Assembly: GCA_031425655.1 (NCBI GenBank)
Contig: JANPJS010000114.1
Coordinates: 1-58,435 of the forward strand
Direction: 5' to 3'
Origin: Abditibacteriaceae bacterium
GTDB taxonomy: Bacteria; Armatimonadota; Abditibacteriia; Abditibacteriales; Abditibacteriaceae
DNA: 58,435 nucleotides
Shown: positions 7,970 through 20,901 of the stretch, piece after piece
Position numbering within the stretch: position 1 is the first letter of the stretch
Layout: each line of letters opens with the position of its first letter
Notes under the pieces: generated by a model
What the model was told of the DNA's origin: nothing
Databases searched by the model: none
Seen by the model: only the letters and a program-made list of their open reading frames with translations
Position numbers and translations under genes: made by a program

Positions 7970-8512
7970 TTAAGCCTCCAATTTCAACCCGCGCAGCGCG
8001 TCTTCGTAAGCGTCCCGCGTTTTATCGTCGAACAATACGAAGCGCACCAATTGCAAATTGTGCGGATGTGACCGCACAAATTCCGCGATTGTTCCCAGCG
8101 CAATCGGCGCGGCTTCGTCCAATGGATAACCATAAATTCCCGTCGAAATCGAAGGAAAAGCGATGCTGACTAACTTATTTTCCGCCGCGAGCCGCAAACT
8201 GTGGCGATAAGCGCCGGCTAATAGCTCGGCTTCATCGCCGCGCACTCCGTAAACCGGCCCGACGGCGTGAATCACATGACGCGCCAAAAGCTGCCCGCCG
8301 CCGGTGATAACCGCTTCGCCGGTCGCGCACCGTTTGTAAAACTGCCGGCATTCCGCGAAGATTTCCGGGCCGCCCGCCTCTCGAATCGCACCGCAAACCC
8401 CGGCGCCCGGCGCCAACGACGAATTCGCCGCGTTGACAATCGCATCCACATCTTCCTGCGTAATGTCGCCCTGAACCAGTTCTAAAGTGCATTCGCCAAT
8501 TTGCGTTTTCAT
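7970..8512 (-). CDS. Macrodomain protein (YmdB/MacroD-like), variant active site
   Basis: GDIT, DAIVNAAN, GAGVCGAIRE, VIHAVGP, FPSISTGIYGY. Confidence 0.9.
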   Translation of the reverse strand: MKTQIGECTLELVQGDITQEDVDAIVNAANSSLAPGAGVCGAIREAGGPEIFAECRQFYKRCATGEAVITGGGQLLARHVIHAVGPVYGVRGDEAELLAGAYRHSLRLAAENKLVSIAFPSISTGIYGYPLDEAAPIALGTIAEFVRSHPHNLQLVRFVLFDDKTRDAYEDALRGLKLEA

Positions 8513-8531
8513 GATTAATAAAGGCAAGTGT

Positions 8532-9077
8532 TTAATGCTGCGACTGGCTCAACTTGCGCAACGCGTTGTCGTAAGCGTTTAACGTCTTTGTGTCGAAAAG
8601 CACCATCCGCACCAGTTGCAGATCATGCAGTTGTGAGCGCAAGAATTCCGTGATGGTTTCAAGAGCGATGGGCGCCGCTTCGTGTAATGGATACCGATAA
8701 GCACCGGTTGAAAGGGACGGAAATGCCACGCTGCGACATTCTTTTTCCACGACAATTAGCAAACTGCTTTGATAGGCGCTGGCCAAAAGTTGAGGCGCGC
8801 GTTGGAGATGCATATCGTAGACCGGGCCAACCGCGTGAATCACATATTTCGCCTTTAAGGTGCCCGCTGTTGTGGCTTTGGCTTGGCCTGTCGGACAGCC
8901 GCCAAGCGGACGACACTCTTCCATGATGCTCGGCCCGCCTGCACGGTGAATCGCACCATCCACACCACCTCCGCCTGCCAAACCCGTGTTCGCCGCGTTG
9001 ACAATCGCATCCACATTTTGCTGCGTAATATCGCCCTGAATCAGTTCTAAAGTGCAGTCGCCAATTTGAGTTTTCAT
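8532..9077 (-). CDS. O-acetyl-ADP-ribose deacetylase (macrodomain, YmdB-like)
   Basis: GDIT, DAIVNAAN, GGGGVDGAIHRAGG, VIHAVGP, FPSLSTGAYRY. Confidence 0.92.
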   Translation of the reverse strand: MKTQIGDCTLELIQGDITQQNVDAIVNAANTGLAGGGGVDGAIHRAGGPSIMEECRPLGGCPTGQAKATTAGTLKAKYVIHAVGPVYDMHLQRAPQLLASAYQSSLLIVVEKECRSVAFPSLSTGAYRYPLHEAAPIALETITEFLRSQLHDLQLVRMVLFDTKTLNAYDNALRKLSQSQH

Positions 9078-9103
9078 GGTTATTACAGATGCTGTCGAGA
9101 TAT

Positions 9104-9227
9104 TTTCAATGGAACACGGATTTTCACGGAAACGGCCACGGATTTAAGCGGTTTTTCAACAGGAAACTCAAGAGAAAATCTGTGTTGATCCGTGGCCGTT
9201 TCCGTGAAAATCCGTGTTCCATTGAAA
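9104..9227. repeat. Long palindromic element, TTTCAATGGAACACGG family (copy 1)
   Basis: ~40-bp arms TTTCAATGGAACACGGATTTTCACGGAAACGGCCACGGAT / ATCCGTGGCCGTTTCCGTGAAAATCCGTGTTCCATTGAAA. Confidence 0.88.
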
Positions 9228-9236
9228 GTTTTAATT

Positions 9237-10520
9237 TCACTTTACGGCCAGCATTTCCTGCGTGACTTTGCCTTTTTGCTTTTGCGCGGCGGTTTGCACG
9301 TCGTCGCGCGACATGATGTTGAGGTTTTGCGCGTTGTGCCCGGCGTCGGCGTATTTCGACGACAGCAATTCTTCGACGCCCGTTACGCCCTCGAAGCCGC
9401 GCGACACTACGTTGTAAAGCGGATCGCGCTCGACGGGTTCACGGCCCGCTTCGACGATCATTTCGACTAATTGGCGGCTTGTCAGAACTTGCTTGCGGTC
9501 GCGCGCCGGGTCGCGGATGATTTCGTATTCCATGATCGTCCCGTCCACGTCGTCGGCGCCATACCAAAGCGCGGTTTGCGTGACCGGCGCAGTATTCATA
9601 ATCCAGAAACTCTTAACGTGCGGGAAGTTATCGAGCATCAAGCGCGCGACGGCGATTTCGCGCAAATCTTCGACGCCGGTCGGCGGCGCGATATGTTCCA
9701 GCGCGGTTTTTTCGGGATGCCACGAAAGCGGAATAAAGGTCAGAAAACCGCCGGTTGTGGTTGCCAGACTTTCGTCTTGTGTTTCGCGCAGTTTGACGAA
9801 GTGTTCGACTTTTTCCGGCGTTTGCTCGACGTGGCCATAAAGCAAAGTCGCGTTGCTTTTCAATCCGGCGCGATGCGCGGCCTGGGCCAGTTCGAGCCAG
9901 CGTTCGGCGTTGGGTTTGGCAGCGAAAAGGTCTTCGTGGACGCGCTCGCTCATCACTTCGGCGCCACCGCCGGGCAAAGCGTCCAAACCGGCAGCTTTTA
10001 AGTCGGCGAAAATCTCGTCTATCGGCTTTTTGGCGGCGCGCACGATTTGATCCATCTCCACCATCGTGAAGGCTTTAATATGCGCTTCGGGACGCGCCGC
10101 TTTGATGGCGCGCAGCAATTCCAGATAATAGGAATACGGCAGTTTCGGGTTCACGCCGCCCACGACGTGCAATTCGGTAATCGGCACGTCGCGGTAATTC
10201 GAGACTTTAGCCGCCGCTTGTTCGGGCGTCATCGTGTAGGCGCGCAGATCGTCTTTCGGGCGCGCGTAAAACGAGCAAAACAGGCAGCCTTTGTTGCAAA
10301 CGTTGGTGTAATTGATGTGCTGATTGCGAACCCAGTAAGCGATGTTGCCGTTCAAGCGCTCGCGCACGATGTTGGCGAGATAACCGACGACGTTCAATTG
10401 CGGCGCCGCGTAAAGGCGCATTCCGTCATCGAAGCTGAGGCGCTCGCCGGCGCGCACTTTTTCGTGAATGTCCGCCAATTTTGCCGCTTCGACGGCGCGT
10501 TTCCAAATCAAATCGCTCAT
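9237..10520 (-). CDS. mqnE: Aminofutalosine synthase (radical SAM)
   Basis: NQHINYTNVCNKGCLFCSF, ELHVVGG, HIKAFT, PGGGAEV, HVKSFWIM, YGADDVDGT. Confidence 0.88.
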   Translation of the reverse strand: MSDLIWKRAVEAAKLADIHEKVRAGERLSFDDGMRLYAAPQLNVVGYLANIVRERLNGNIAYWVRNQHINYTNVCNKGCLFCSFYARPKDDLRAYTMTPEQAAAKVSNYRDVPITELHVVGGVNPKLPYSYYLELLRAIKAARPEAHIKAFTMVEMDQIVRAAKKPIDEIFADLKAAGLDALPGGGAEVMSERVHEDLFAAKPNAERWLELAQAAHRAGLKSNATLLYGHVEQTPEKVEHFVKLRETQDESLATTTGGFLTFIPLSWHPEKTALEHIAPPTGVEDLREIAVARLMLDNFPHVKSFWIMNTAPVTQTALWYGADDVDGTIMEYEIIRDPARDRKQVLTSRQLVEMIVEAGREPVERDPLYNVVSRGFEGVTGVEELLSSKYADAGHNAQNLNIMSRDDVQTAAQKQKGKVTQEMLAVK

Positions 10521-10674
10521 GGTATTTTCTTCCAAAAAGTCTAACAGCCCCAACGAATCGCACCGCAGCGCGTTGCCGCTTGCGCTAATCACAGCAATCG
10601 GTTTCGTCTTCGTCTTGCCATATCAAAATTAGTGCAATTCAACAACGCGCCAGTGTCAAAACGCGCAATTCATC

Positions 10675-10716
10675 TGCTATAATTTGGGCAACGCTTTCTT
10701 TCATGAAGGCTATAAT
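10675..10716 (+). promoter_or_regulatory. Putative sigma70 extended -10 promoter
   Basis: TGcTATAAT at 10675-10683 and a second TATAAT at 10711-10716 upstream of ATG 10730. Confidence 0.45.
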
Positions 10717-10729
10717 TCGAGGAAGAAAT

Positions 10730-11674
10730 ATGAAACACAAAGCAAGTTGGAGCAGGATGTTGGGCATGGCGGCAGTCGCGGCCACGTTGGGTTTATCGTC
10801 AGTCGTATTGACGGGTTGCAGCGGAGGCGGCAACGTGTTGGGCGGCGGCGGCCCGGTTGTCAACGGAAATTTCGTCGGCGTGGCGGCTAATTTAGGCGCA
10901 GGACGCACCGGCACGTTTGCACTGGAATCGCGCAGTGACAACACCATGGAAGGCACGGTCACAGTTGTTGCGCCGGCGGCCCCGTTAGCCCGCATTTCTG
11001 CAGCCGCCGTAAGCTTGCCTCCCGGCGTTTACCCTTTTCAGGGAACGCGCAACGGCAATAGCTTCACCGGCAGTGGCCGTTACACCGGCACTCCGGCCTT
11101 CGATTTCACTGTCGGCGGCACCCTTTCCACGACAGCCAACGCCGGTAGTTGGACGATCTCCGGTTCAGTTAACGGCGAACCGTTCGAGTTCTTGGGAGCG
11201 ATCAACGTCACGACCGGTGGCGGCGGTGGAGGTGGCGGCAACGCCTCGTTTACCTTTTCCAACAGCGGCAGCAACGCGAATACGGGTTCGTTTAGCAGCG
11301 CTGCCGATGTCGGCACGTCCTATGTTGTAGCCGGCGAACGCTTTTTAAATGCCTCGTTTACCGATGTGACCAATCCGGCCAGCCCTCGCATTATTAGCAT
11401 CACGGTTACCAAATCCAGCGCATTCGTTGTCGGCGACACTTTTGGTCAAGCCGGTCGCAGCGTAGGATACAGCGAAGGCGCGCCGCCGTCCAAGTTGTGG
11501 AATTCACGCGGTGGCACCGCGAAAATCACGGCGATTAATGGCACTAACTACACAATCGAATTAACCAACGTCGCCATGGAGCCGACAGGTTTTGGACTTC
11601 CCGGCCAGGTCAACAACGCCAGCGGCAATTTCACGATTAACGGCAGCGGAACCGTCGTTATCACAGCGCAATAA
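10730..11674 (+). CDS. Hypothetical lipoprotein (Gly/Thr/Asn-rich, two beta-rich domains)
   Basis: Lipobox LTG-C after a hydrophobic stretch; poly-Gly linker. Confidence 0.82.
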   Translation: MKHKASWSRMLGMAAVAATLGLSSVVLTGCSGGGNVLGGGGPVVNGNFVGVAANLGAGRTGTFALESRSDNTMEGTVTVVAPAAPLARISAAAVSLPPGVYPFQGTRNGNSFTGSGRYTGTPAFDFTVGGTLSTTANAGSWTISGSVNGEPFEFLGAINVTTGGGGGGGGNASFTFSNSGSNANTGSFSSAADVGTSYVVAGERFLNASFTDVTNPASPRIISITVTKSSAFVVGDTFGQAGRSVGYSEGAPPSKLWNSRGGTAKITAINGTNYTIELTNVAMEPTGFGLPGQVNNASGNFTINGSGTVVITAQ

Positions 11675-11693
11675 GTCACAAAGTCGCATCCAA

Positions 11694-11729
11694 GCAAAAA
11701 GTCACGGCCCTCGCCGTGGCTTTTTGTTT
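11694..11729 (+). terminator. Intrinsic terminator
   Basis: GCAAAAAGTCACGG-loop-CCGTGGCTTTTTGT. Confidence 0.65.
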
Positions 11730-11739
11730 TCTCGCCGGA

Positions 11740-11768
11740 TTGACGCCCTTTGAGCAAATTGCTATTAA
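11740..11768 (+). promoter_or_regulatory. Putative fucI promoter
   Basis: TTGACG-N17-TATTAA with TG extension. Confidence 0.4.
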
Positions 11769-11801
11769 CTTAGCCCAGAAATCCGCGAACCAAAGGAATC
11801 C

Positions 11802-13709
11802 ATGGCTAACACCAGCAATTTGAATGTGAATGCGCCGACCAATCGTCTGCGCGGCTCTCTGCCGAAAATCGGCATCCGTCCGACTATTGATGGCCGCTAC
11901 GGCGGCGTGCGCGAATCGCTCGAAGACACCGTGATGAGCATGGCGCAAAACGTCGCCGAATTTCTGGGCGAAAATCTGCGCCACTCGTGCGGTCTGCCGG
12001 TCGAATTCATCCTTGCCGACACCTGCATCGGCGGCGCGTCCGAAGCCGCCAAATGCGCCGAAAAGTTTGGACGCGAAAACGTCGGCGTTTCGATAACCGT
12101 CACGCCGGCTTGGTGCTACGGCAGCGAGACGATGGACATGACGCCGAACATTCCCAAAGCGATTTGGGGCTTCAACGGGACGGAGCGGCCCGGCGCAGTT
12201 TATCTCGCAGCGGTTTTGTCCGGGCATTCGCAAAAAGGCATTCCCGCCTTCGGCATTTATGGCCGCGACGTGCAGGACGGCGGCGACGAAACCATCCCCG
12301 ACGACGTGCAGGAAAAGCTGCTGCAATTCGCCCGCGCCGCTCTCGCCGTCGCTTCGATGAAAGGCACCAGTTACTTAGCGATGGGCGGCGTTTCGATGGG
12401 CATCGCCGGTTCGATTGTTGACCAGCCGTTTTTTGAAGAATATCTCGGAATGCGCGTCGAATCCAAAGACATGACCGAATTCGTGCGCCGTTTCGAGCGC
12501 GAAATCTACGATAAAGATGAATTCGAGCGCGCACTGACTTGGGTTAAAGAAAATTGCCCCGAAGGCCAAGACTGGAACGAGGAAAAGGCGCGTTCGCGCG
12601 AGCAAAAAGACGCCGATTGGCAAACCAGCATCAAAATGGCGCTCATCGCGCGCGACATGATGATCGGCAATCCGCGCCTTGCCGAACTCGGTTTCAAAGA
12701 GGAAGCCGAAGGTCACAACGCCATCGCGGGCGGCTTTCAAGGCCAGCGCCAGTGGACGGATCACTTTCCCAACGGCGACTTTTTAGAAGCGATTCTCAAC
12801 ACCAGTTTCGATTGGAACGGCATTCGCCAGCCGTTTATCGTAGCCACCGAAAACGATTCGCTCAACGGCGCTTCGATGCTGCTCGGCCATCTTCTCACGG
12901 GCACGCCGCAGCTTTTCGCCGACGTTCGCACTTATTGGAGCGCCGAAGCCGTGCGCCGCGTGACCGGCTACGATTTGGAAGCCGTCGCTGCCGAAACACT
13001 GGGCCGCATGAACGATTTAATGGAAGCCGGCGCCGATGATGACGAACTGATGGACGCCTTCGACGACTCGCAAACCGTCGCGCCCGACGGCTTTTTGCAT
13101 CTCATCAACTCCGGCCCGGCGGCCTTAGATTGGACAGGCGAGCAAACCGACGACGAAGGCGACCCGATTGTTAAACCGTGGTGGCAAGTGACAGCCGATG
13201 AAGCCGGCGCCTGCCTCGATGCGACGAAATGGTGCCCTTCGATGACCGAATACTTCCCCGGCGGCGGTTGGAGCACCGATTTCACAACGCGCGGCAATAT
13301 GCCGGTCACGATGTATCGCATCAACTTAGTCAAAGGTCTCGGCCCGGTTTTGCAAATCGCCGAAGGCTTTTCGATTGATTTGCCCAACGACGTGCATAAA
13401 ATTTTAGACGAGCGCACCAACCCGACATGGCCAACGACGTGGTTCGTGCCTAATTTAACCGGCGAAGGCCCGTTTGTGGACGTGTATTCCGTGATGAACG
13501 CGTGGGGCGCCAATCACGGCGCGATTTCCTACGGCCACATCGGCGGCGATTTAATCACGCTCGCTTCGATGCTGCGGATTCCCGTTGATATGCACAACGT
13601 GCCCGGCGAGCGCGTTTTTCGTCCCAGCGTGTGGACACGCTTCGGCGCAATGGAGCCGCAAAGCGCCGATTACCGCGCTTGTCAGGCGTTTGGGCCGCTT
13701 TATCGGTAG
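11802..13709 (+). CDS. fucI: L-fucose isomerase
   Basis: [59 protein letters not shown]. Confidence 0.96.
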
Positions 13710-13747
13710 GTTTTGAAACTGGTGTAGAGGCTAAGGAGTAGGTTAGA

Positions 13748-13865
13748 TAAGTAGTCAGACCTATTTAGTTTAGACTATCGACCAAAGGCACAAACCGCTT
13801 TTTGCACTCAAATGAGCAATGAGTTGCCAAAGCAAAGGTCTAATGTAATTAGGTCCGACTACTTA
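13748..13865. mobile_element. MITE with TA-flanked terminal inverted repeats (IS630-like), inside a hairpin
   Basis: TAAGTAGTCAGACCTATTTAGTTTAGAC / GTCTAATGTAATTAGGTCCGACTACTTA; outer arms AGGAGTAGGTTA (13734-13745) / TAACCTACTCCT (13874-13885). Confidence 0.65.
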
Positions 13866-13926
13866 TGACCTTTTAACCTACTCCTCTCACGCAGGCGCAT
13901 TTGAGTCATTAAAAGGAAACCTCACA

Positions 13927-16116
13927 ATGGACGTGTCAAAACAGAAGGTTTTGGTAGTCGGCGACCTAATGCTTGATCGAACGTGGCTTACTTCGTTTCG
14001 GGCCAGCCCGACCTCTGAAAGCCATGCCAATGTCGAGCCGCACACGCGATTCAATCCCGAAGCGATTGACGTTCGTGCTGGCGGGGCGGGAATGACTGCA
14101 CTGTCAATTTCTTCACACCCTATGGATACCGAGGTGCATCTGTTGTCCTCCGATTGCCATTCCGATGACGTTAGAGTTTTTCAAAATCTGGGTCTATGGC
14201 GGGCCGAAACATCCGACTGTTCAGAAGAAAATCGGCCTCCTCATGCGGTGACTTGGCATATTCTTGAATGGGATCCGAGCATCAAACCAATAACAACTGT
14301 TAAGTTCCGAATATTTGACCGCATGGCCGGACAGACTCCGAAATTACGTCATCGCTTCGATCAAGACCCTCCCAATGATTCCAAAATCGAACCTTGCCTT
14401 CCGGCATCGTTGCCGCAGGATATCGATATTGTCTTCCTCTCTGAATTCAACAAAGGAGCAATCACCGAAAATTTGCTAATGGCATTGCAGGAACGTTACT
14501 GCAAGGCCTTCTGGCTATTGGAAGCTAAAAATAAGAAGTTGCTTGAATCGTTTGGCAACAACATTACGAATAAACGCTTCGTCATCCTCTCTAATCGCAG
14601 CGAAGCAGAGCAGCTATTTACCTCCACCTTGTCGGATCCGTCAAAAAAGGCTCCTCAAAAGACGACCTTGAACGGCAAAAAGACGATTATCTGGCCTCAT
14701 CTCCTCCACCACGGCTCTAAATTCCTTACCGACACCGGCTGGCAGGGTCTAATTTTAGTAGTGAAACTTGATGAAGATGGCGCAGTAGCCTTTTGGCGAG
14801 ATTCGACCAATCAAAACTTGCACGATTCCCCGGTTCAGGATGCAAAGGTGTGGGTCTGTGCTGCATCAGGTGATAAGTTCCCCAATGTCGCTGGCATTGG
14901 TGCGCGTGATTTTTTTAGTGCAGGATGCATCAATGCAATCATACAGCGCGGGAAGGTAACTACCACCTCACAGCTAGTCGAATCATTGCTTATAGGCGGT
15001 ATTGACTACGCTCAACGCTGGATAAAATTCAGCGACGTTGAGTTTTGGGAATCGAAGGCTCATAAAGAGAAAAAGAACGGCAAGGGATTGCGCGATTGCC
15101 CTTGGCCGCAGGATTTACAGACTTACAGCCAGTCAAAGCTCAAGTATCCGATACTTGACAGAAGGCCAGAGGCTGTCGAAGCTGCAATTAGACGAAGTCA
15201 ATCCGCAACCAAATACCCAAAAAATCTTGGCAAAACCGGCAAACCAAAGGAATTGACGTTGAGTGAGGCGAAGGGTTATTTGGGCGAATTTCTCACGGTA
15301 GACCCAGTAAAGGGCGATCTCATTAGTCGCTTCGCTGATGAAATCAAAGAGTATTTTGAGCGCACGGTGAAAACCCGACCTTTGAACTGCGCTATCTGGG
15401 CGGATCCAGGGTCGGGAAAATCCTTCTTCGCCAAAGAAGTCGCAGCTTTTGCGAAAGCCCATTTTACTGAGATAAACGTCAGTCAGATGACCTCGACACA
15501 AGAACTTTTGAACCAATTGGGTTACATTGCGGGGAACAAACGCGACAGGTTGGTTTTACTGCTGGACGAGGTAGAGACACTAATTCAGGGCAGTCATGTT
15601 TATCCGCAACTTCTGGCTCCGCTCTGGGACGGAACCGTGGCGTCGGAACGAGGCCTGCTTGATTTGGGGCGGCGATTCGTTTGCATCCTTGTCGCAAGTA
15701 AAGAAGGATTCAAAACGGGGGAAAATTTCGTTCGGCAAATCGCAAACGAGAAGAACGCAAAGGGGCCTGACTTAGCTTCCAGAATTAATGGCCGAGTCAT
15801 GACCCTCCAAGCGCCAAGTAACGCAGACCGCGCTTACATGGCTGCGAGTCTCATAAAGCGCAATTTTGGAGAAACGGTTTCACAAGTTCACTTCGGGCTT
15901 CTTGATTTCATTGTCAAAGGCAAGCTATCACCGCGTAAAATAGAGCAGTTGTTGGGCGGAGTGAAGCAACCGCGCGACGGATGTATAACAAAGGACGATT
16001 GGAAGCATCTGGTAGAAGACGGGAGCACCTTTTTGGCTCGGTTGAGCACTAAAATGACACAAACCGAAATTTCCGCCTACGTTCGCAACACCGAAATTGT
16101 CACCATCAAAGAGTGA
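13927..16116 (+). CDS. HldE/PfkB-like kinase-fold domain fused to C-terminal AAA-type ATPase
   Basis: KVLVVGDLMLD, GGAG, TTVKFRI, SEFNKG, VVKLDEDGA, GIGARD; Walker A ADPGSGKS, Walker B LLLDEVE, GPDLASRI; AT-richer than flanks. Confidence 0.75.
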   Translation: MDVSKQKVLVVGDLMLDRTWLTSFRASPTSESHANVEPHTRFNPEAIDVRAGGAGMTALSISSHPMDTEVHLLSSDCHSDDVRVFQNLGLWRAETSDCSEENRPPHAVTWHILEWDPSIKPITTVKFRIFDRMAGQTPKLRHRFDQDPPNDSKIEPCLPASLPQDIDIVFLSEFNKGAITENLLMALQERYCKAFWLLEAKNKKLLESFGNNITNKRFVILSNRSEAEQLFTSTLSDPSKKAPQKTTLNGKKTIIWPHLLHHGSKFLTDTGWQGLILVVKLDEDGAVAFWRDSTNQNLHDSPVQDAKVWVCAASGDKFPNVAGIGARDFFSAGCINAIIQRGKVTTTSQLVESLLIGGIDYAQRWIKFSDVEFWESKAHKEKKNGKGLRDCPWPQDLQTYSQSKLKYPILDRRPEAVEAAIRRSQSATKYPKNLGKTGKPKELTLSEAKGYLGEFLTVDPVKGDLISRFADEIKEYFERTVKTRPLNCAIWADPGSGKSFFAKEVAAFAKAHFTEINVSQMTSTQELLNQLGYIAGNKRDRLVLLLDEVETLIQGSHVYPQLLAPLWDGTVASERGLLDLGRRFVCILVASKEGFKTGENFVRQIANEKNAKGPDLASRINGRVMTLQAPSNADRAYMAASLIKRNFGETVSQVHFGLLDFIVKGKLSPRKIEQLLGGVKQPRDGCITKDDWKHLVEDGSTFLARLSTKMTQTEISAYVRNTEIVTIKE

Positions 16117-16290
16117 GATTGCGAGGCTAATTGCGCGCATTGTTCGGAAGACCACTATCGCTGCCGTTCTGTGTTGCTCCAATTTATGTCCGCACAGCCA
16201 CTCTGTTTCCTGCGTCCTCGATAATGCTGCTGCATTGCGTTTACCACCACGATACGCAGGATGAAGCAACTTTTTCGGCAAGATGTTGAT

Positions 16291-16343
16291 CCGCAAGCGC
16301 CGATTACCATGCGTGTTAGGCGTTTGGGCCGCTTTATCGGTAA
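16291..16343 (+). repeat. Diverged direct repeat of the fucI 3' end
   Basis: Matches 13656-13709; perfect 25-mer AGGCGTTTGGGCCGCTTTATCGGTA at 13684-13708 and 16318-16342. Confidence 0.9.
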
Positions 16344-16346
16344 AGA

Positions 16347-16383
16347 GCAAAGTTCCCGGTTCTCACCGAACCGGGAACTTTGC
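16347..16383 (+). terminator. Strong hairpin/terminator after the duplicated fucI end
   Basis: GCAAAGTTCCCGGTTC-TCACC-GAACCGGGAACTTTGC. Confidence 0.75.
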
Positions 16384-16408
16384 ATGACTTAATGGCCTTT
16401 ACATTCTT

Positions 16409-16948
16409 ATGAAACTCTCCAAGATTCTCACGTCATTTTGCACCGCCGCCGCGCTGCTTCTGACTGTCTCAGCGGCACACGCCGCGCCCGCCGATTTCAC
16501 GGTGCAATCCGCGACCAGCGATGCCACGTTCAAATTGTCCGAGGCCAAAGGAAAATTCGTGGCTTTGCATTTCCTGCTCAAGACCGAATGCCCGCTTTGC
16601 CTGCGTCACACGCGAGATCACTTTGCCAAAGCGTCGAAGCTGCCTAACGTCGTTCAAGTGTTTCTCAAGCCCGACACGCCCGAAGAAATCAAAGCGTGGG
16701 CCGGCAAAATTCCTGCGGAAGAACTCGCCAAAAACTCGATTTACCGCGACCCAGACGCGAAATTGGCCAAAGATTTCGAGGTTCCCAACGGCTACTTTTT
16801 TCACGGCCAAACCGTGCATTTTCCCGCATTAATTTTGCTGGGGCCGGACGGCAAAGAAGTTTTCCGTTACGTCGGCAAGAACAATGGCGACCGCTACTCG
16901 TTCGACAAACTGGCGGCCAAAGTCGCCGAACTGTCGAAAGAGAAATAA
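16409..16948 (+). CDS. Secreted thioredoxin-fold redoxin (AhpC/TSA-like)
   Basis: Signal peptide AHA-A, PADFTV, CPLC, FPALILLGPDGK. Confidence 0.85.
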   Translation: MKLSKILTSFCTAAALLLTVSAAHAAPADFTVQSATSDATFKLSEAKGKFVALHFLLKTECPLCLRHTRDHFAKASKLPNVVQVFLKPDTPEEIKAWAGKIPAEELAKNSIYRDPDAKLAKDFEVPNGYFFHGQTVHFPALILLGPDGKEVFRYVGKNNGDRYSFDKLAAKVAELSKEK

Positions 16949-16962
16949 TAATCCGAAACTTC

Positions 16963-17069
16963 AAACGGCGCCTGCGAAAATGCAGGCGCCGTTTTGTGTT
17001 TCGCGTTGGCTAAAGCATGAGCATGACCACCGAAACCGCTACGCCTGCCGCTTTGCCCAAACGCCACGA
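16963..17069 (+). repeat. Diverged duplicate of terminator + pepF 5' end
   Basis: AAACGGCGCCTGCGAAAATGCAGGCGCCGTTT...ATGACCACCGAAACCGCTACGCCTGCCGCTTTGCCCAAACGCCACGAA matches 19015-19122. Confidence 0.9.
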
Positions 17070-17202
17070 ATCCAAATTCCTGCTATGATTCAAAATATCC
17101 TCATGAAAGTAAGACTGGGGTCGTGGATCATAGGGAAAAGGGTTTATACCTGTTGAGATCGCATTTCAGGTAGCCTGTGCTATTTCCAGCCAAGCTTTAC
17201 CA

Positions 17203-17418
17203 ATGCCGCGTATTGCTCCTTCTGCCGACGAAGGGGTGGCGATCTCTTATCGCAAAGAAAATCGCTTTGGCATGATTGAATTTTTCAATACCGGCGAAAT
17301 TGTGGCTGTGACTTCTGAAGGCACGTCGCGTCCAGTTGTGTAGGATGTTACAGCCTCCAGGCCTGCCATCGCTGATTCATTCAAGCGCATTGCTGAGTTT
17401 CTCCAACTCACGTCGTAG
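17203..17418 (+). pseudogene. Decayed small gene (possible partner/antitoxin) with internal TAG
   Basis: Reads MPRIAPSADEGVAISYRKENRFGMIEFFNTGEIVAVTSEGTSRPVV*DVTASRPAIADSFKRIAEFLQLTS*; stop at 17341-17343; 5' part also broken. Confidence 0.5.
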
Positions 17419-17782
17419 CTTTCTTTCCTACCCGCTATGTGCAATTCAGACGAAACTGCCAAAGATGGCAGGCCTGAACGGATGTATCAAAACTCAAGGC
17501 CAACTGTTGAAGCCTTCGCGGATAGCGAGATGCTTTATTTCCGCGTTGATTCCAATGGCTTTACTGAAAAAGGAGAGGCAACTTACCACATCGAACCAGA
17601 TGCAGTTCGGCCTCCTGACCAATCTGTAAATCGTCATAATGGAACCCAGCAGTTTGGTCAACCCGAAGATGTTCTCTGGGATTCACACTTTGGAATTCAT
17701 CATACCGAGGACGGCGTTGCAGAAATCCCAGTCAGCGCGATTCCCGAACGTCTTGAAGTGGAAGACAGCCCCATAGTATTTA

Positions 17783-18771
17783 GCCCAAGTTGCTACCTAT
17801 AAGCATGAGATGGCATAGGCGAGAACAAAGCAGGTGAGTTTAAGTTCCAATCTCTGCTGTGTGACGGCATGGATGCGCTTGGGAAACAAGTTTGTGATTT
17901 GGCTGATGGCGGTTTCGACTTGTTGGCGAATGGGTTTGGAGACAAATTCAACCCACGGTGGCATGACTCGCTTCGCATTGCGTTTGCGTAAAGGCTGCAA
18001 GATAATCCCACCCGCTTCGCGCAACAGGTCTTCTTCGCCATAGTCGTTGTAGCCCTTGTCCGCGTGAATGAGCGAGCCGGGCGGCAACTCCAACTCCAAA
18101 TGACGAAAACCCGTTGGGTCGGCTATGCTGCCCGGCGTGAGCACAAACTCCACCGGTTCACCCTGTCCGGTGATGAGCAATTGCACCTTGAACCCGAAGA
18201 AATAGCTCTTCTTGCTGGCGCAATAACCCCGAAAAGACTCTTTATGCAATTTGGGAAAGAGTTTGCAGCGTTGGATACGGATATTGTGGCAGACCGGAAC
18301 GGGAAAAGAATCCACCACATAAGCGCCACTGGTATTGTGCTCTCGGAAGACCTGAGCCGGAAGACCTGAGCCAACAAGCGAAACAGCGTATGCCACAAAC
18401 TCTTGAGCAAGGCGCTCAAGCAACGACTCAAGCAACGACTCAAGCGCGAGGCTCTCAGATGCACTTTGAAGTAGCCGTGGCCATGCAAAAAAGCGCGGGT
18501 TCTGGCCATGTTGCCCCCAAATTCTGGCCATGTTGCCCCCAAATTCTCGCCATGTTCCTCCAAAGCAGGCGCAAGCAACCACAGGCACAGTCATGACTTC
18601 GGCACAAGAAGACAGGCTCTGAAGGTTGTCGTGGTGCTTCAGGGCTTTGAGCAAGTCGTCGCACAAGCAATAAATGGTGGTAATGATATCCTGCATTTGG
18701 GTCTCCTGATTGGTGAGTTGGTGCTCTCAATCGGGAGACTATCTGCTTCGTCAATAAGTAGAAACTTGGGT
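17783..18771 (-). mobile_element. IS982-family insertion sequence
   Basis: TIRs GCCCAAGTTGCTAC / GTAGAAACTTGGGT; 9-bp target duplication TAGTATTTA (17774-17782, 18772-18780). Confidence 0.92.
17797..18696 (-). CDS. IS982 DDE transposase with an internally frameshifted segment
   Basis: ITTIYCLCDD, VVDSFPVPVC, GYCASKKSYFFGFK, ADKGY, RQQVETAISQ; internal tandem duplications. Confidence 0.85.
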   Translation of the reverse strand: MQDIITTIYCLCDDLLKALKHHDNLQSLSSCAEVMTVPVVACACFGGTWREFGGNMARIWGQHGQNPRFFAWPRLLQSASESLALESLLESLLERLAQEFVAYAVSLVGSGLPAQVFREHNTSGAYVVDSFPVPVCHNIRIQRCKLFPKLHKESFRGYCASKKSYFFGFKVQLLITGQGEPVEFVLTPGSIADPTGFRHLELELPPGSLIHADKGYNDYGEEDLLREAGGIILQPLRKRNAKRVMPPWVEFVSKPIRQQVETAISQITNLFPKRIHAVTQQRLELKLTCFVLAYAISCL

Positions 18772-19014
18772 TAGTATTTACTTGTCGTCCTTCCCATGTG
18801 CTGTTGTGCAACAATTACGCTCATAGCGAAATAAGAATGCTTCAAAACGATGTGTTCAAAGATCGTGTATCAAGTAAAAAAGCCCGCACGGAGTATAGAA
18901 CCTCGGTTGCGAATGCCAGCCATGCGTATTCGTTGCCGCCCAATTTAACTCGTGCCCAATAAGCACGAATTTAAGCGTTCGGGACGCTTAAATTCTCAGG
19001 CCCACGTTCTTTCC

Positions 19015-19046
19015 AAACGGCGACTGCGAAAATGCAGTCGCCGTTT
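19015..19046 (+). terminator. Intrinsic terminator
   Basis: AAACGGCGACTGC-GAAAAT-GCAGTCGCCGTTTT. Confidence 0.7.
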
Positions 19047-19074
19047 TGTCGTTTGTGTTGGCTAAACTACGGGC

Positions 19075-20901
19075 ATGACCACCGAAAGCGCGGCGCCCGC
19101 CGCTTTGCCCAGACGCCACGAAGTCGCAACCGAACTGACTTGGGATTTATCGCCGGTTTACGCCGATGACGCGGCATGGGAAACCGATTTTTCGCGTATC
19201 GAGCAGCTTTGCAGCGAGTTTTCGCCGCTGCAAGGCACACTTTCGCAATCGCCGCAAGCGCTGCTGCACGCGCTGCGAATGCGCGATGAGCTTGGCATTC
19301 TTTTCGACCAGCTTTATTCGTATGCCAGCTTGCGGCGCAGCGAAGACAACGCCAATCCGCAATCGCAGGGCCGCGCCGACCGTGCATTGATGCTTTACAC
19401 CAAAGTCGGCAGCGCAACAGCTTGGGTCGAGCCGGAAATTTTGGCGATTCCTTCGAGCGTGGTGCGCGACTTTATTCAGCAGGAAAACGGCCTAAAAGCC
19501 TACGATTTTTATCTGCAAACGCTCGAAGCGCGCCGCCCGCACGTTCGCAGCGCCGAAGTCGAAGATGTTTTAGCCCAAGCCGGCGAAGCGCTTGGTTCCA
19601 GCGGCAACGCCTTCAAATTATTCAACAACGCCGACTTGAAATTTCCCTCGATCCGCGATGAAAATGGGCGCGATGTCGAGCTATCGCATGGCCGTTATCT
19701 CTCGTTTTTGGAAAGCCGCGACCGAACGGTGCGCGAAACCGCTTTTCGCGCCATGCACGGCGAATATTCCAAGTGGAAAAACACGCTTGCCGCAACGCTT
19801 TCGGGCAACGTCAAGGCGCACGTTTTCAACGCGCGCGTGCGCGGCTACGAATCGGCCTTAGACGCTTCACTCAGCCAAAACCTGATTCCGGTTCCGGTTT
19901 ACGGCAACCTCATCGCCGCCGTGCGCGAACGCCTGCCGGTTTTGCATCGCTATCTGCGGCTTCGCAAAAAGCTGCTCAATTTGCCCGATTTGCAATTGTG
20001 GGATTTATATGTGCCGATGGTGGGCGAAGTCGAGCGGCCCGTTAGCATCGAAGAAGCGAAAAAAGCGGTTATAGACGCCGCCGCGCCATTGGGCGACGAT
20101 TACGTGCAGATTCTGCGCGGCGGCTTCGAGGCGCGTTGGGTGGATTGGATCGAAAACCAGAACAAAACCAGCGGCGCTTTTTCCGACGGCGCGTATTCGA
20201 CGCCGCCTTATATCTTGATGAACTGGCAGGACGATTTGCACCGCACCTTCACTCTCGCCCACGAATTCGGGCACTCGCTGCATTCGCACTTAACGCGGCA
20301 AACGCAGCCATATATTTACGCAGATTATACGTTGTTCGTCGCCGAAGTCGCCAGCACGCTCAATGAAGCGCTGTTGACCCACCATTTGGTGGAACAGGCT
20401 AAGCGCGATGGCGACCGCGATTTAGAATTGTATCTGCTCAATCACTACGCCGAGGGCTTCCGCACCACGCTTTATCGCCAAACCATGTTCGCCGAATTCG
20501 AGCAGCGCATTCACGCGATGTTCGAGGCCGGCGAAGCTCTCACCGCCGAAGCCATGAGCGCGTCTTACAAAAGCTTGAACGACGATTTTTACGGCGCCGA
20601 AGTGATTGTAGATGACTGCGTTTCCATCGAATGGGCGCGCATTCCTCACTTTTATTACAACTTTTACGTTTATCAATACGCGACCGGCATTTCGGCGGCG
20701 ACGGCGTTGGCCGCGCAAATCATAAAAGAAGGCGCACCGGCTGTCGAGCGCTATTTGAACTTCCTACGCGGCGGCAGCAGCGACACCAGCATCAATTTGC
20801 TGCGCGGCGCCGGAGTTGACATGGCAACGCCCGCTCCGATTCATCAAGCGCTGGATGCCTTCGATGCGACTGTTGCGCGCATGGAAGAGTTGGCTTCCTG
20901 A
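19075..20901 (+). CDS. pepF: Oligoendopeptidase F (M3B)
   Basis: TWDLS, KTSGAFS, TLAHEFGHSLHS, AEVASTLNE, WARIPHFYYNFYVYQYATG. Confidence 0.95.
   Translation: MTTESAAPAALPRRHEVATELTWDLSPVYADDAAWETDFSRIEQLCSEFSPLQGTLSQSPQALLHALRMRDELGILFDQLYSYASLRRSEDNANPQSQGRADRALMLYTKVGSATAWVEPEILAIPSSVVRDFIQQENGLKAYDFYLQTLEARRPHVRSAEVEDVLAQAGEALGSSGNAFKLFNNADLKFPSIRDENGRDVELSHGRYLSFLESRDRTVRETAFRAMHGEYSKWKNTLAATLSGNVKAHVFNARVRGYESALDASLSQNLIPVPVYGNLIAAVRERLPVLHRYLRLRKKLLNLPDLQLWDLYVPMVGEVERPVSIEEAKKAVIDAAAPLGDDYVQILRGGFEARWVDWIENQNKTSGAFSDGAYSTPPYILMNWQDDLHRTFTLAHEFGHSLHSHLTRQTQPYIYADYTLFVAEVASTLNEALLTHHLVEQAKRDGDRDLELYLLNHYAEGFRTTLYRQTMFAEFEQRIHAMFEAGEALTAEAMSASYKSLNDDFYGAEVIVDDCVSIEWARIPHFYYNFYVYQYATGISAATALAAQIIKEGAPAVERYLNFLRGGSSDTSINLLRGAGVDMATPAPIHQALDAFDATVARMEELAS

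Follow-up and report, generated by a model that had tools for sequence, protein, structure and literature searches.

Organization of the locus

The window analysed here is a whole stretch of 58,435 nucleotides (positions 1 to 58,435 of contig JANPJS010000114.1, from an Abditibacteriaceae bacterium), within which an insertion following the host fucI gene carries a single gene, coding for a kinase-like domain fused to an AAA+ ATPase. The features of the locus are the following:

13653..13708, + strand: 3' end of host fucI (L-fucose isomerase, 11802-13709), left boundary
13710..16287, no strand assigned: low-GC single-gene insertion of 2.6 kb, ~48% GC, with no recombinase or partner gene (GC and gene scan)
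13734..13885, no strand assigned: long imperfect hairpin upstream of the gene
13927..16116, + strand: 729-aa fusion of an HldA-like (pseudo)kinase and an AAA+ ATPase (ORF list, Pfam, homologs, AlphaFold)
13927..15171, + strand: ribokinase/PfkB-fold domain, residues ~1-415 (Foldseek, VIA, residue comparison)
14899..14910, + strand: anion-hole motif GARD (GAGD in the family), Arg327 codon at 14905-14907 (alignment, ketohexokinase G257R)
15244..16113, + strand: AAA+ domain (Pfam AAA, E 4e-7; 26 of 26 conserved positions intact)
15400-15423, + strand: Walker A of the AAA+ domain
15556-15570, + strand: Walker B of the AAA+ domain
residues 570-579, + strand: predicted pre-sensor-1 beta-hairpin of the AAA+ domain
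15781-15783, + strand: Arg finger R619 of the AAA+ domain
15934-15936, + strand: sensor-2 R670 of the AAA+ domain
16288..16342, + strand: degenerate duplicate of the fucI 3' end, right boundary (50/56 nt identical, 89%; in-frame stop)

The gene is an imported, foreign insertion. At 48.6%, its GC content falls below the 56.7% of the genome and within the bottom 0.9% of 5421 windows, so that the AT-rich island of the preliminary description stands in relative terms, although the DNA is still 48.6% GC. The insertion was not found after fucI in any of three same-genus genomes, which have a different ORF there (reductase-like, labelled by eye), and in a profile search of 301 phylum genomes, with three candidates scored per genome, the full-length match was restricted to the host. 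The gene is the sole intact cargo, as first described, of the 2.6-kb insertion, but not of the wider low-GC stretch, which also includes a further insertion, distinct from this one, and a redoxin gene whose codon usage resembles that of the host (GC3 0.66). No sigma-70 promoter match was found for the gene, and a partner-gene remnant looked for at 16117-16290 was not found.

The hairpin upstream of the gene has a z of -6.2, none of 200 shuffles folding as well, and 34-nt stretches of its arms recur, at 88%, in two relatives. It was rejected as an attC site because the GTT and AAC cores are wrongly ordered (by eye), and as a REP or MITE because it is single-copy, no second copy being present in the genome.

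A genome scan of the host found 25 diverged gene-end duplicates, two of them inside the window. Four of the remaining 23 insertions bracketed in this way carry R-M or TA genes by Pfam (L213, L218, L221, L229) and 19 have no Pfam defence gene, both being raw counts; a looser scan gave four extra insertions, two of which hold EcoRI- or NotI-type R-M. The boundaries of the second insertion of the window (16962-19122) are marked by a duplicate of the pepF 5' end with its upstream hairpin, 109 nt long and 86% identical. It contains a DDE transposase (17797-18696), in an element (~17774-18771) by which a small ORF with its start at 17437 seems to be interrupted, and, upstream, a short ORF remnant; by eye these ORFs are a broken bacterial toxin-antitoxin-like pair, with no Pfam match. 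The segment 17774-18771 is omitted from a low-depth contig of run X2. Two tandem macro-domain-like genes (label by eye) lie on the minus strand at 7970-9077 of the window, and at G000:C211, ~9000-16000, some eight hairpin repeats of 100-130 nt, 72-88% alike, stand between short low-GC ORFs, an arrangement resembling an integron cassette array.

The encoded protein

The 729-aa ORF is a real gene and not a chance reading frame, since a word search found 11 full-length homologs with 27-45% identity (12 matches among 7994 scored), and a profile search 161 representatives at E <= 1e-10, of which the best 150 are listed. A separately assembled contig from run X1 covers 13248-16684 with 0 differences, so that the GARD motif and both junctions are not artefacts of one assembly; this run is probably the source sample, and hence no independent organism.

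The kinase and ATPase motifs named in the preliminary description are all present in the translated ORF, at residues 10-17 (VVGDLMLD), 52-55 (GGAG), 123-128 (TTVKFR), 143-147 (RFDQD), 172-177 (SEFNKG), 325-328 (GARD), 492-499 (ADPGSGKS), 544-550 (LLLDEVE) and 615-620 (DLASRI). The AlphaFold model of the full protein, obtained with a 95-sequence alignment, has a pLDDT of 92.2 and a pTM of 0.91, the latter suggesting a fixed packing between the domains, and it ends after the AAA+ lid. Pfam places the AAA domain (PF00004) above cut-off, and no fused effector domain was found in the protein.

The HldA-like kinase domain

That an HldE-like fold is joined to an AAA+ ATPase, as originally proposed, is borne out by sequence profiles, Foldseek and VIA. 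The top Foldseek match of the full model, in a search whose rows cover residues 3-413 only, is HldA (4e8y, E 1.3e-12), and the VIA alignment to 4e84 has a Z of 26.1 and an rmsd of 3.2 over 297 residues, HldA and pseudouridine kinase being tied at Z ~26. Profile comparison with 4e84 gives an E of 6e-15 using the HldE-free alignment A2, the score based on A4 being inflated because A4 includes four HldE sequences. The NCBIfam matches to HldE at the N-terminus are weak and below cut-off (rfaE_dom_I/TIGR02198, 23.8 bits vs 345; PRK11316, 22.3 vs 521 bits).

The domain keeps D13, D17, GG52-53, K126, R128, R143, D145, K176, K201, N223xxE226 and D328. All 17 key positions common to 7/7 canonical HldE kinases are found in the family consensus, and 15 of the 17 in the window copy, which deviates at D173E and G327R. 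The HldE-type pocket residues K126, R128, R143, D145, K176 and K201, which we take to be the binders of the 7-phosphate, are all present, and the five host PfkB paralogs match at most two of these six basic/acidic positions. The conservative changes D173E and D199E lie in the same active site as G327R; counted over conserved positions, the kinase domain has 3/36 changes vs 0/26 for the ATPase, a difference that is not significant (p = 0.26).

The altered anion hole is not a trait of the family, as the family consensus reads G[IV][GAS]AGD. At the second Gly of GAGD, 61 aligned homologs present 54 Gly, seven N, T, K or S, and no Arg, in alignment A2, for which 62 of 157 proteins were chosen and the most divergent clade, the AAA-only proteins and most fragments were left out; judged by this alignment, GARD is private to the window copy. 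The three closest full-length homologs keep GAGD, and G327R is reachable by one base change. In ketohexokinase, according to a passage of PMC2651755, GAGD corresponds to residues 255-258, forms the anion hole and binds the gamma-phosphate, and a passage of PMC6482012 has G257R serving as a kinase-dead mutant (no such passage is found in PMC7595112). Since G327R is the same change, the window copy is probably inactive as a kinase, i.e. a pseudokinase. The ligand-sensing role suggested earlier thereby gains support for the window copy.

The AAA+ domain and its occurrence elsewhere

The catalytic residues of the AAA+ domain are conserved: K498 (Walker A), D547/E548 (Walker B), S591 (sensor 1), R619 and R670. 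The conserved Arg finger points to a ring oligomer, which the domain may thus form; a three-copy complex model of the domain, with a score of 0.00, speaks neither for nor against this, and the single-sequence fold of the domain, with a pLDDT of 36, is not usable. Among profiles of six host AAA+ types, the longest match is the NtrC-like activator (189 columns, 96.6%, including Arg finger and sensor 2), with the GAFTGA loop absent in the alignment. Classic AAA proteins score equally (97.5%) but across Walker A-B only (71-82 columns), so that any placement of the domain within the AAA+ clades is tentative. ClpB D2 can be aligned with it at the RP motif and the hairpin, and the Atlas neighbours of the domain carry AAA_2, Torsin and Sigma54_activat; NtrC-family AAA+ and ClpB D2/Torsin come under the clade name of pre-sensor-1 hairpin ATPases. 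Pfam detected neither a DNA-binding domain nor a C-terminal HTH in the 729-aa protein.

The same AAA+ is also met with on its own, or joined to FGE-sulfatase, TPR or ThrB-like kinase domains, and some of these loci are clear conflict loci; the module alone adjoins TIR-STAND/NACHT/HerA, Schlafen, or relaxase/PIN/Abi genes (L128, L028, L062). The ThrB-like fusion (L044:74-2158) joins a GHMP kinase with intact-looking motifs to the module, a second kinase fold recruited. Eight loci (L038, L174, L175, L178, L181, L188, L190, L191) share a conserved cassette with a methyltransferase-like gene (in 7/8), a ~1200-aa protein and an alpha/beta serine hydrolase; of the two NTPase domains in the ~1200-aa protein, one belongs to this AAA+ family, and in L188 the protein has a weak squalene-cyclase-like match. 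Several paralogs per genome are found in Nitrososphaerota (L043, L046, L047, L050, L053, L055, L057, L060, L065, L091), TPR being confirmed in the two scanned, and four stand-alone AAA+ genes (L036, L127, L142, L171) are preceded by a conserved gene pair or fusion of ~300 + 440 aa with one weak DUF5700 match. A hexokinase adjoins L143, which may be chance because the AAA+ of this locus looks truncated.

In addition, the family profile retrieves proteins of 700-1150 aa with a RyR match at E <= 0.001 in 7 of the 14 scanned, five of these above cut-off; one of these relatives, WP_216126931.1 (PfkB-like + AAA+ + RyR), bears the RefSeq name 'Ryanodine receptor Ryr'. The N-termini of this group align with the window kinase domain (hhalign 95%, E 2.8e-8, 285 columns; reversed control 0.1%) and have lost the anion hole. 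RyR itself (PF02026) gave no match at E <= 1 in the window protein, and no functional study of PfkB-like + AAA+ + RyR proteins was found in the literature searched. Phage RyR-domain proteins are reported in PMC13232231 to degrade or sequester cADPR immune signals; the main text of that paper mentions neither ATPases nor kinases.

Family relationships and kinase-dead clades

The kinase-AAA+ family is rare, moves horizontally and has a patchy distribution; a search of 400 further genomes from the phylum to which L023 belongs gave no full-length match, and viral contigs gave no family member, their five matches covering only the kinase N-terminus and resembling ordinary HldE. In a FastTree tree, midpoint-rooted and with no clade test, the window protein falls into one group (support 99) together with P0002-P0004 and with five kinases that stand alone, L118 among them. 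Kinases without AAA+ thus exist in the family, and L118 and L119 have a phosphatase beside them, which indicates that the ATPase is not always the output.

Catalytic motifs have been lost in at least three other groups, namely clade II, a six-protein subclade and the RyR-bearing group. All 12 clade-II proteins keep R128, R143, D145, D173 and K201, and are without D328. One protein (P0168), considered as a nuclease-fused family member, is actually a canonical HldA fusion, and another (P0176) fuses an HD-CE domain to a divergent HldE-like kinase, a further phosphohydrolase-kinase pairing.

No description of the family was found in full-text literature searches, nor in the main texts of PMC13581612, PMC8195603, PMC7159879, PMC13092281, PMC7824862 and PMC13232231, the supplements of which could list the architecture. 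The family, with its active cassette and dead clades, thus appears undescribed in the literature searched, and its logic would resemble that of NTPase-gated and kinase-phosphatase conflict modules.

Partner genes of the intact members

The single-gene system envisaged in the preliminary description does not apply to the catalytically intact members, which are two-gene cassettes. Genome and metagenome scans, the locus search being run with alignment A1, recovered the N-terminal domain of the family at 24 loci. An adjacent partner gene is present in 10 of 10 loci with an intact anion hole and downstream DNA (L022 ends at a contig edge): a GmhB-like HAD phosphatase in seven (L023, L118, L119, L120, L129, L154 and, truncated, the decayed cassette L024) and a Gfo/Idh/MocA dehydrogenase in three (L021, L117, L164). 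The best NCBIfam matches of the partners are GmhB/HisB-type and inositol 2-dehydrogenase, kinase and partner genes often have overlapping stop/start codons, and in P0030 the Gfo domain is fused to the family protein. Among the 13 loci without the anion hole, nine have more than 3 kb downstream (eight distinct) and none of these has either partner, the other four being too short; this correlation rests on few independent lineages, the dead loci falling in two clades and three GAGD loci being close kin.

Neither partner is present in the window, and the host genome gives only weak matches to the partner profiles; these were built from nine of the ten partners, the identity of the partners resting on separate neighbour-gene scans. 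An ORF at L118:1-1722 overlaps the start of the stand-alone kinase and by eye is NTPase-type with an FGE-sulfatase-like end, with no Pfam or NCBIfam match.

Genomic context

The preliminary description had named vertical inheritance in LPS/heptose operons as the finding that would count against it; given the patchy distribution and the context of the loci, this is not what we observe. At a distance of up to 4.5 kb, LPS or polysaccharide genes are present in 10/12 canonical HldE loci vs 0/11 GAGD loci, setting aside the GmhB-like partner, in a scan of all 87 control ORFs and of 87 family ORFs hand-picked for the most part out of 129 at 22 loci. The 11 GAGD loci have no gene for an isomerase, nucleotidyltransferase, glycosyltransferase or sugar transporter beside them, and an ADP-heptose pathway context, with GmhA, adenylyltransferase, HldD and heptosyltransferases, is not seen near family kinase genes. 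GmhA and HldE were not found in the host genome, which is 97% complete, and of four further genomes carrying GAGD-type or partial members, not necessarily complete ones, none has strong matches to both.

A defence role of the gene is possible, although the conflict context is indirect. Neighbours of family loci include integrases, HipA, AbiEii and IS3, with a Dsr1-like gene at L129, but integrase, transposase or TA neighbours are not significantly enriched (5/11 GAGD loci, from hand-picked neighbours, vs 2/12 HldE controls, p = 0.19), and PADLOC 2.0, with its library from 2023, gave no match for the 729-aa protein or for 19 family or superfamily members scanned; the defence association first suggested is thus retained as indirect context only. 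Four dead-clade loci (L030, L133, L141, L052) adjoin glycosyl- or sulfotransferases, and others adjoin housekeeping genes.

Proposed mechanism and alternative explanations

In our view, the window gene may code for a functioning sugar-phosphate-gated ATPase of a mobile conflict module, a reading that we hold tentatively, at a little under an even chance. The family would consist of an HldA-derived sugar-phosphate kinase joined to an AAA+ ATPase. In intact members, the kinase would phosphorylate a heptose-7-phosphate-like sugar phosphate and the partner would remove or convert the product, so that the pair would set the level of one metabolite. The ligand might be something other than heptose-7-phosphate itself, given that GmhA was not found in the host. 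In the window copy, with the anion hole presumably blocked by G327R, the partner absent, and the pocket residues and whole ATPase kept, the kinase domain would only bind the sugar phosphate, and binding would gate the assembly or activity of the AAA+ ring. The same ligand gating would likely operate in the sister clades that independently lost catalysis. The output is the least certain step, and could be growth arrest by ATP drain or remodelling of a host target once an infection or invading element disturbs the metabolite.

Alternatively, the gene could be a disarmed orphan, in which the kinase was the toxin, the phosphatase or dehydrogenase its antidote and the AAA+ domain only a gate, the copy having been acquired without the antidote or having lost it, and G327R having been selected to silence the toxin and leaving an inert gene in early decay. 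This, the chief alternative, we regard as somewhat unlikely, although several observations agree with it: the partner accompanies all active loci, often with overlapping stop/start codons, and has only weak matches in the host; the lesion is one base change, and GAGD is retained in the three full-length homologs closest to the window protein; at L118, the nearest locus for which context is available, the phosphatase accompanies a kinase that stands alone; and L024 is a decayed cassette. However, 729 codons remain open, the ATPase is intact at 26/26 positions and the pocket residues are kept, the conservative D173E and D199E resemble pseudokinase drift rather than one fresh lesion, and there are entire clades that have survived with neither anion hole nor partner.

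A metabolic accessory function, in rare-sugar or cyclitol repair or biosynthesis, with the AAA+ as activase or scaffold and the dead forms sensing metabolites and regulating surface-glycan genes, would account for the partners being ordinary sugar enzymes, for the fusion of the same AAA+ to a ThrB-like kinase (L044) and its presence in the methyltransferase/double NTPase/hydrolase cassette, and for the glycosyltransferases flanking dead-clade genes in four loci. We consider it quite unlikely, given that the 11 GAGD loci lack adjoining isomerase, nucleotidyltransferase, glycosyltransferase or sugar transporter genes, and given the extreme rarity of the family, with 0 full-length matches in 300 other host-phylum or 400 other L023-phylum genomes.

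A sugar-phosphate-responsive sigma-54 transcription activator, suggested by the long NtrC-like alignment, is very improbable in a protein with no GAFTGA loop aligned and no DNA-binding domain detected, whose Walker A-B part alone matches classic AAA proteins equally well. An ordinary ADP-heptose/LPS kinase with an incidental fusion is barely credible despite HldA being the best match by sequence and Foldseek and the partner resembling GmhB, in view of the rfaE_dom_I score far below cut-off, the host genome in which GmhA and HldE were not found, the 0/11 loci among LPS genes and the blocked anion hole.

A further reading, unlikely as it stands, would be a new class of bacterial immune module made of two enzymes of the LPS pathway, in which the HldA-derived kinase would write, and the GmhB-derived phosphatase erase, an alarm metabolite resembling a heptose bisphosphate, which the dead AAA+-fused descendants (the window gene, the dead clades and the RyR proteins) would read. 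Heptose phosphate has so far been known as a precursor of LPS and a trigger of animal innate immunity; if this proposal were true, bacteria would use it as a danger signal of their own, a new signal class in bacterial immunity. The family connects the HldA/GmhB pair, in a setting other than LPS synthesis, with a promiscuous AAA+ module and with the many unstudied bacterial and fungal 'Ryanodine receptor Ryr' proteins, a three-way connection unstated in the literature searched. The natural series of active kinases with a partner and several independent dead kinases without one makes the step from enzyme to sensor directly testable, the window copy being one base from the active motif. If the gene is only a disarmed orphan, the interest shifts to the intact two-gene cassette.

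Comparison with known systems

STAND NTPase immune receptors (Avs/NLR) differ from the window protein, which is without a STAND NTPase and C-terminal repeat sensor: Pfam gives only nSTAND6 at E 0.16, and no repeats. The KKP kinase-phosphatase toxin-antitoxin defence module, as presented in PMC11341870, would have in common with the family a write/erase logic carried by a mobile element, should the toxin reading hold; its kinases are described there as Ser/Thr protein kinases and 'PfkB' is only a gene name, whereas the present family has a kinase fold of the sugar-phosphate type, fused to an AAA+ and partnered by a HAD or Gfo protein. With NtrC-family AAA+ and ClpB D2/Torsin the ATPase shares, respectively, the aligned Arg finger and sensor 2, and the RP motif and hairpin, but it has a single ring domain and neither GAFTGA loop nor HTH. 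In human ketohexokinase G257R, the anion hole of a ribokinase-family enzyme has undergone the identical change from GAGD to GARD; it is a laboratory dead mutant of a distant homolog, by analogy with which the window copy would be inactive.

The PfkB-like + AAA+ + RyR proteins of bacteria and fungi have a homologous N-terminal fold, the AAA+ module and a lost anion hole, and differ in the RyR domain, which the window protein lacks. Finally, compared with HldA/HldE domain I, the window protein has ~19% identity, a fused AAA+, a location not among LPS genes and GARD in place of the intact GAGD present in most of the family. In contrast, the ribokinase fold is the same (Z 26.1, rmsd 3.2), the family consensus agrees at 17/17 key residues, and the family partner is GmhB-like, GmhB being, according to PMC10221265, the next enzyme of the pathway.
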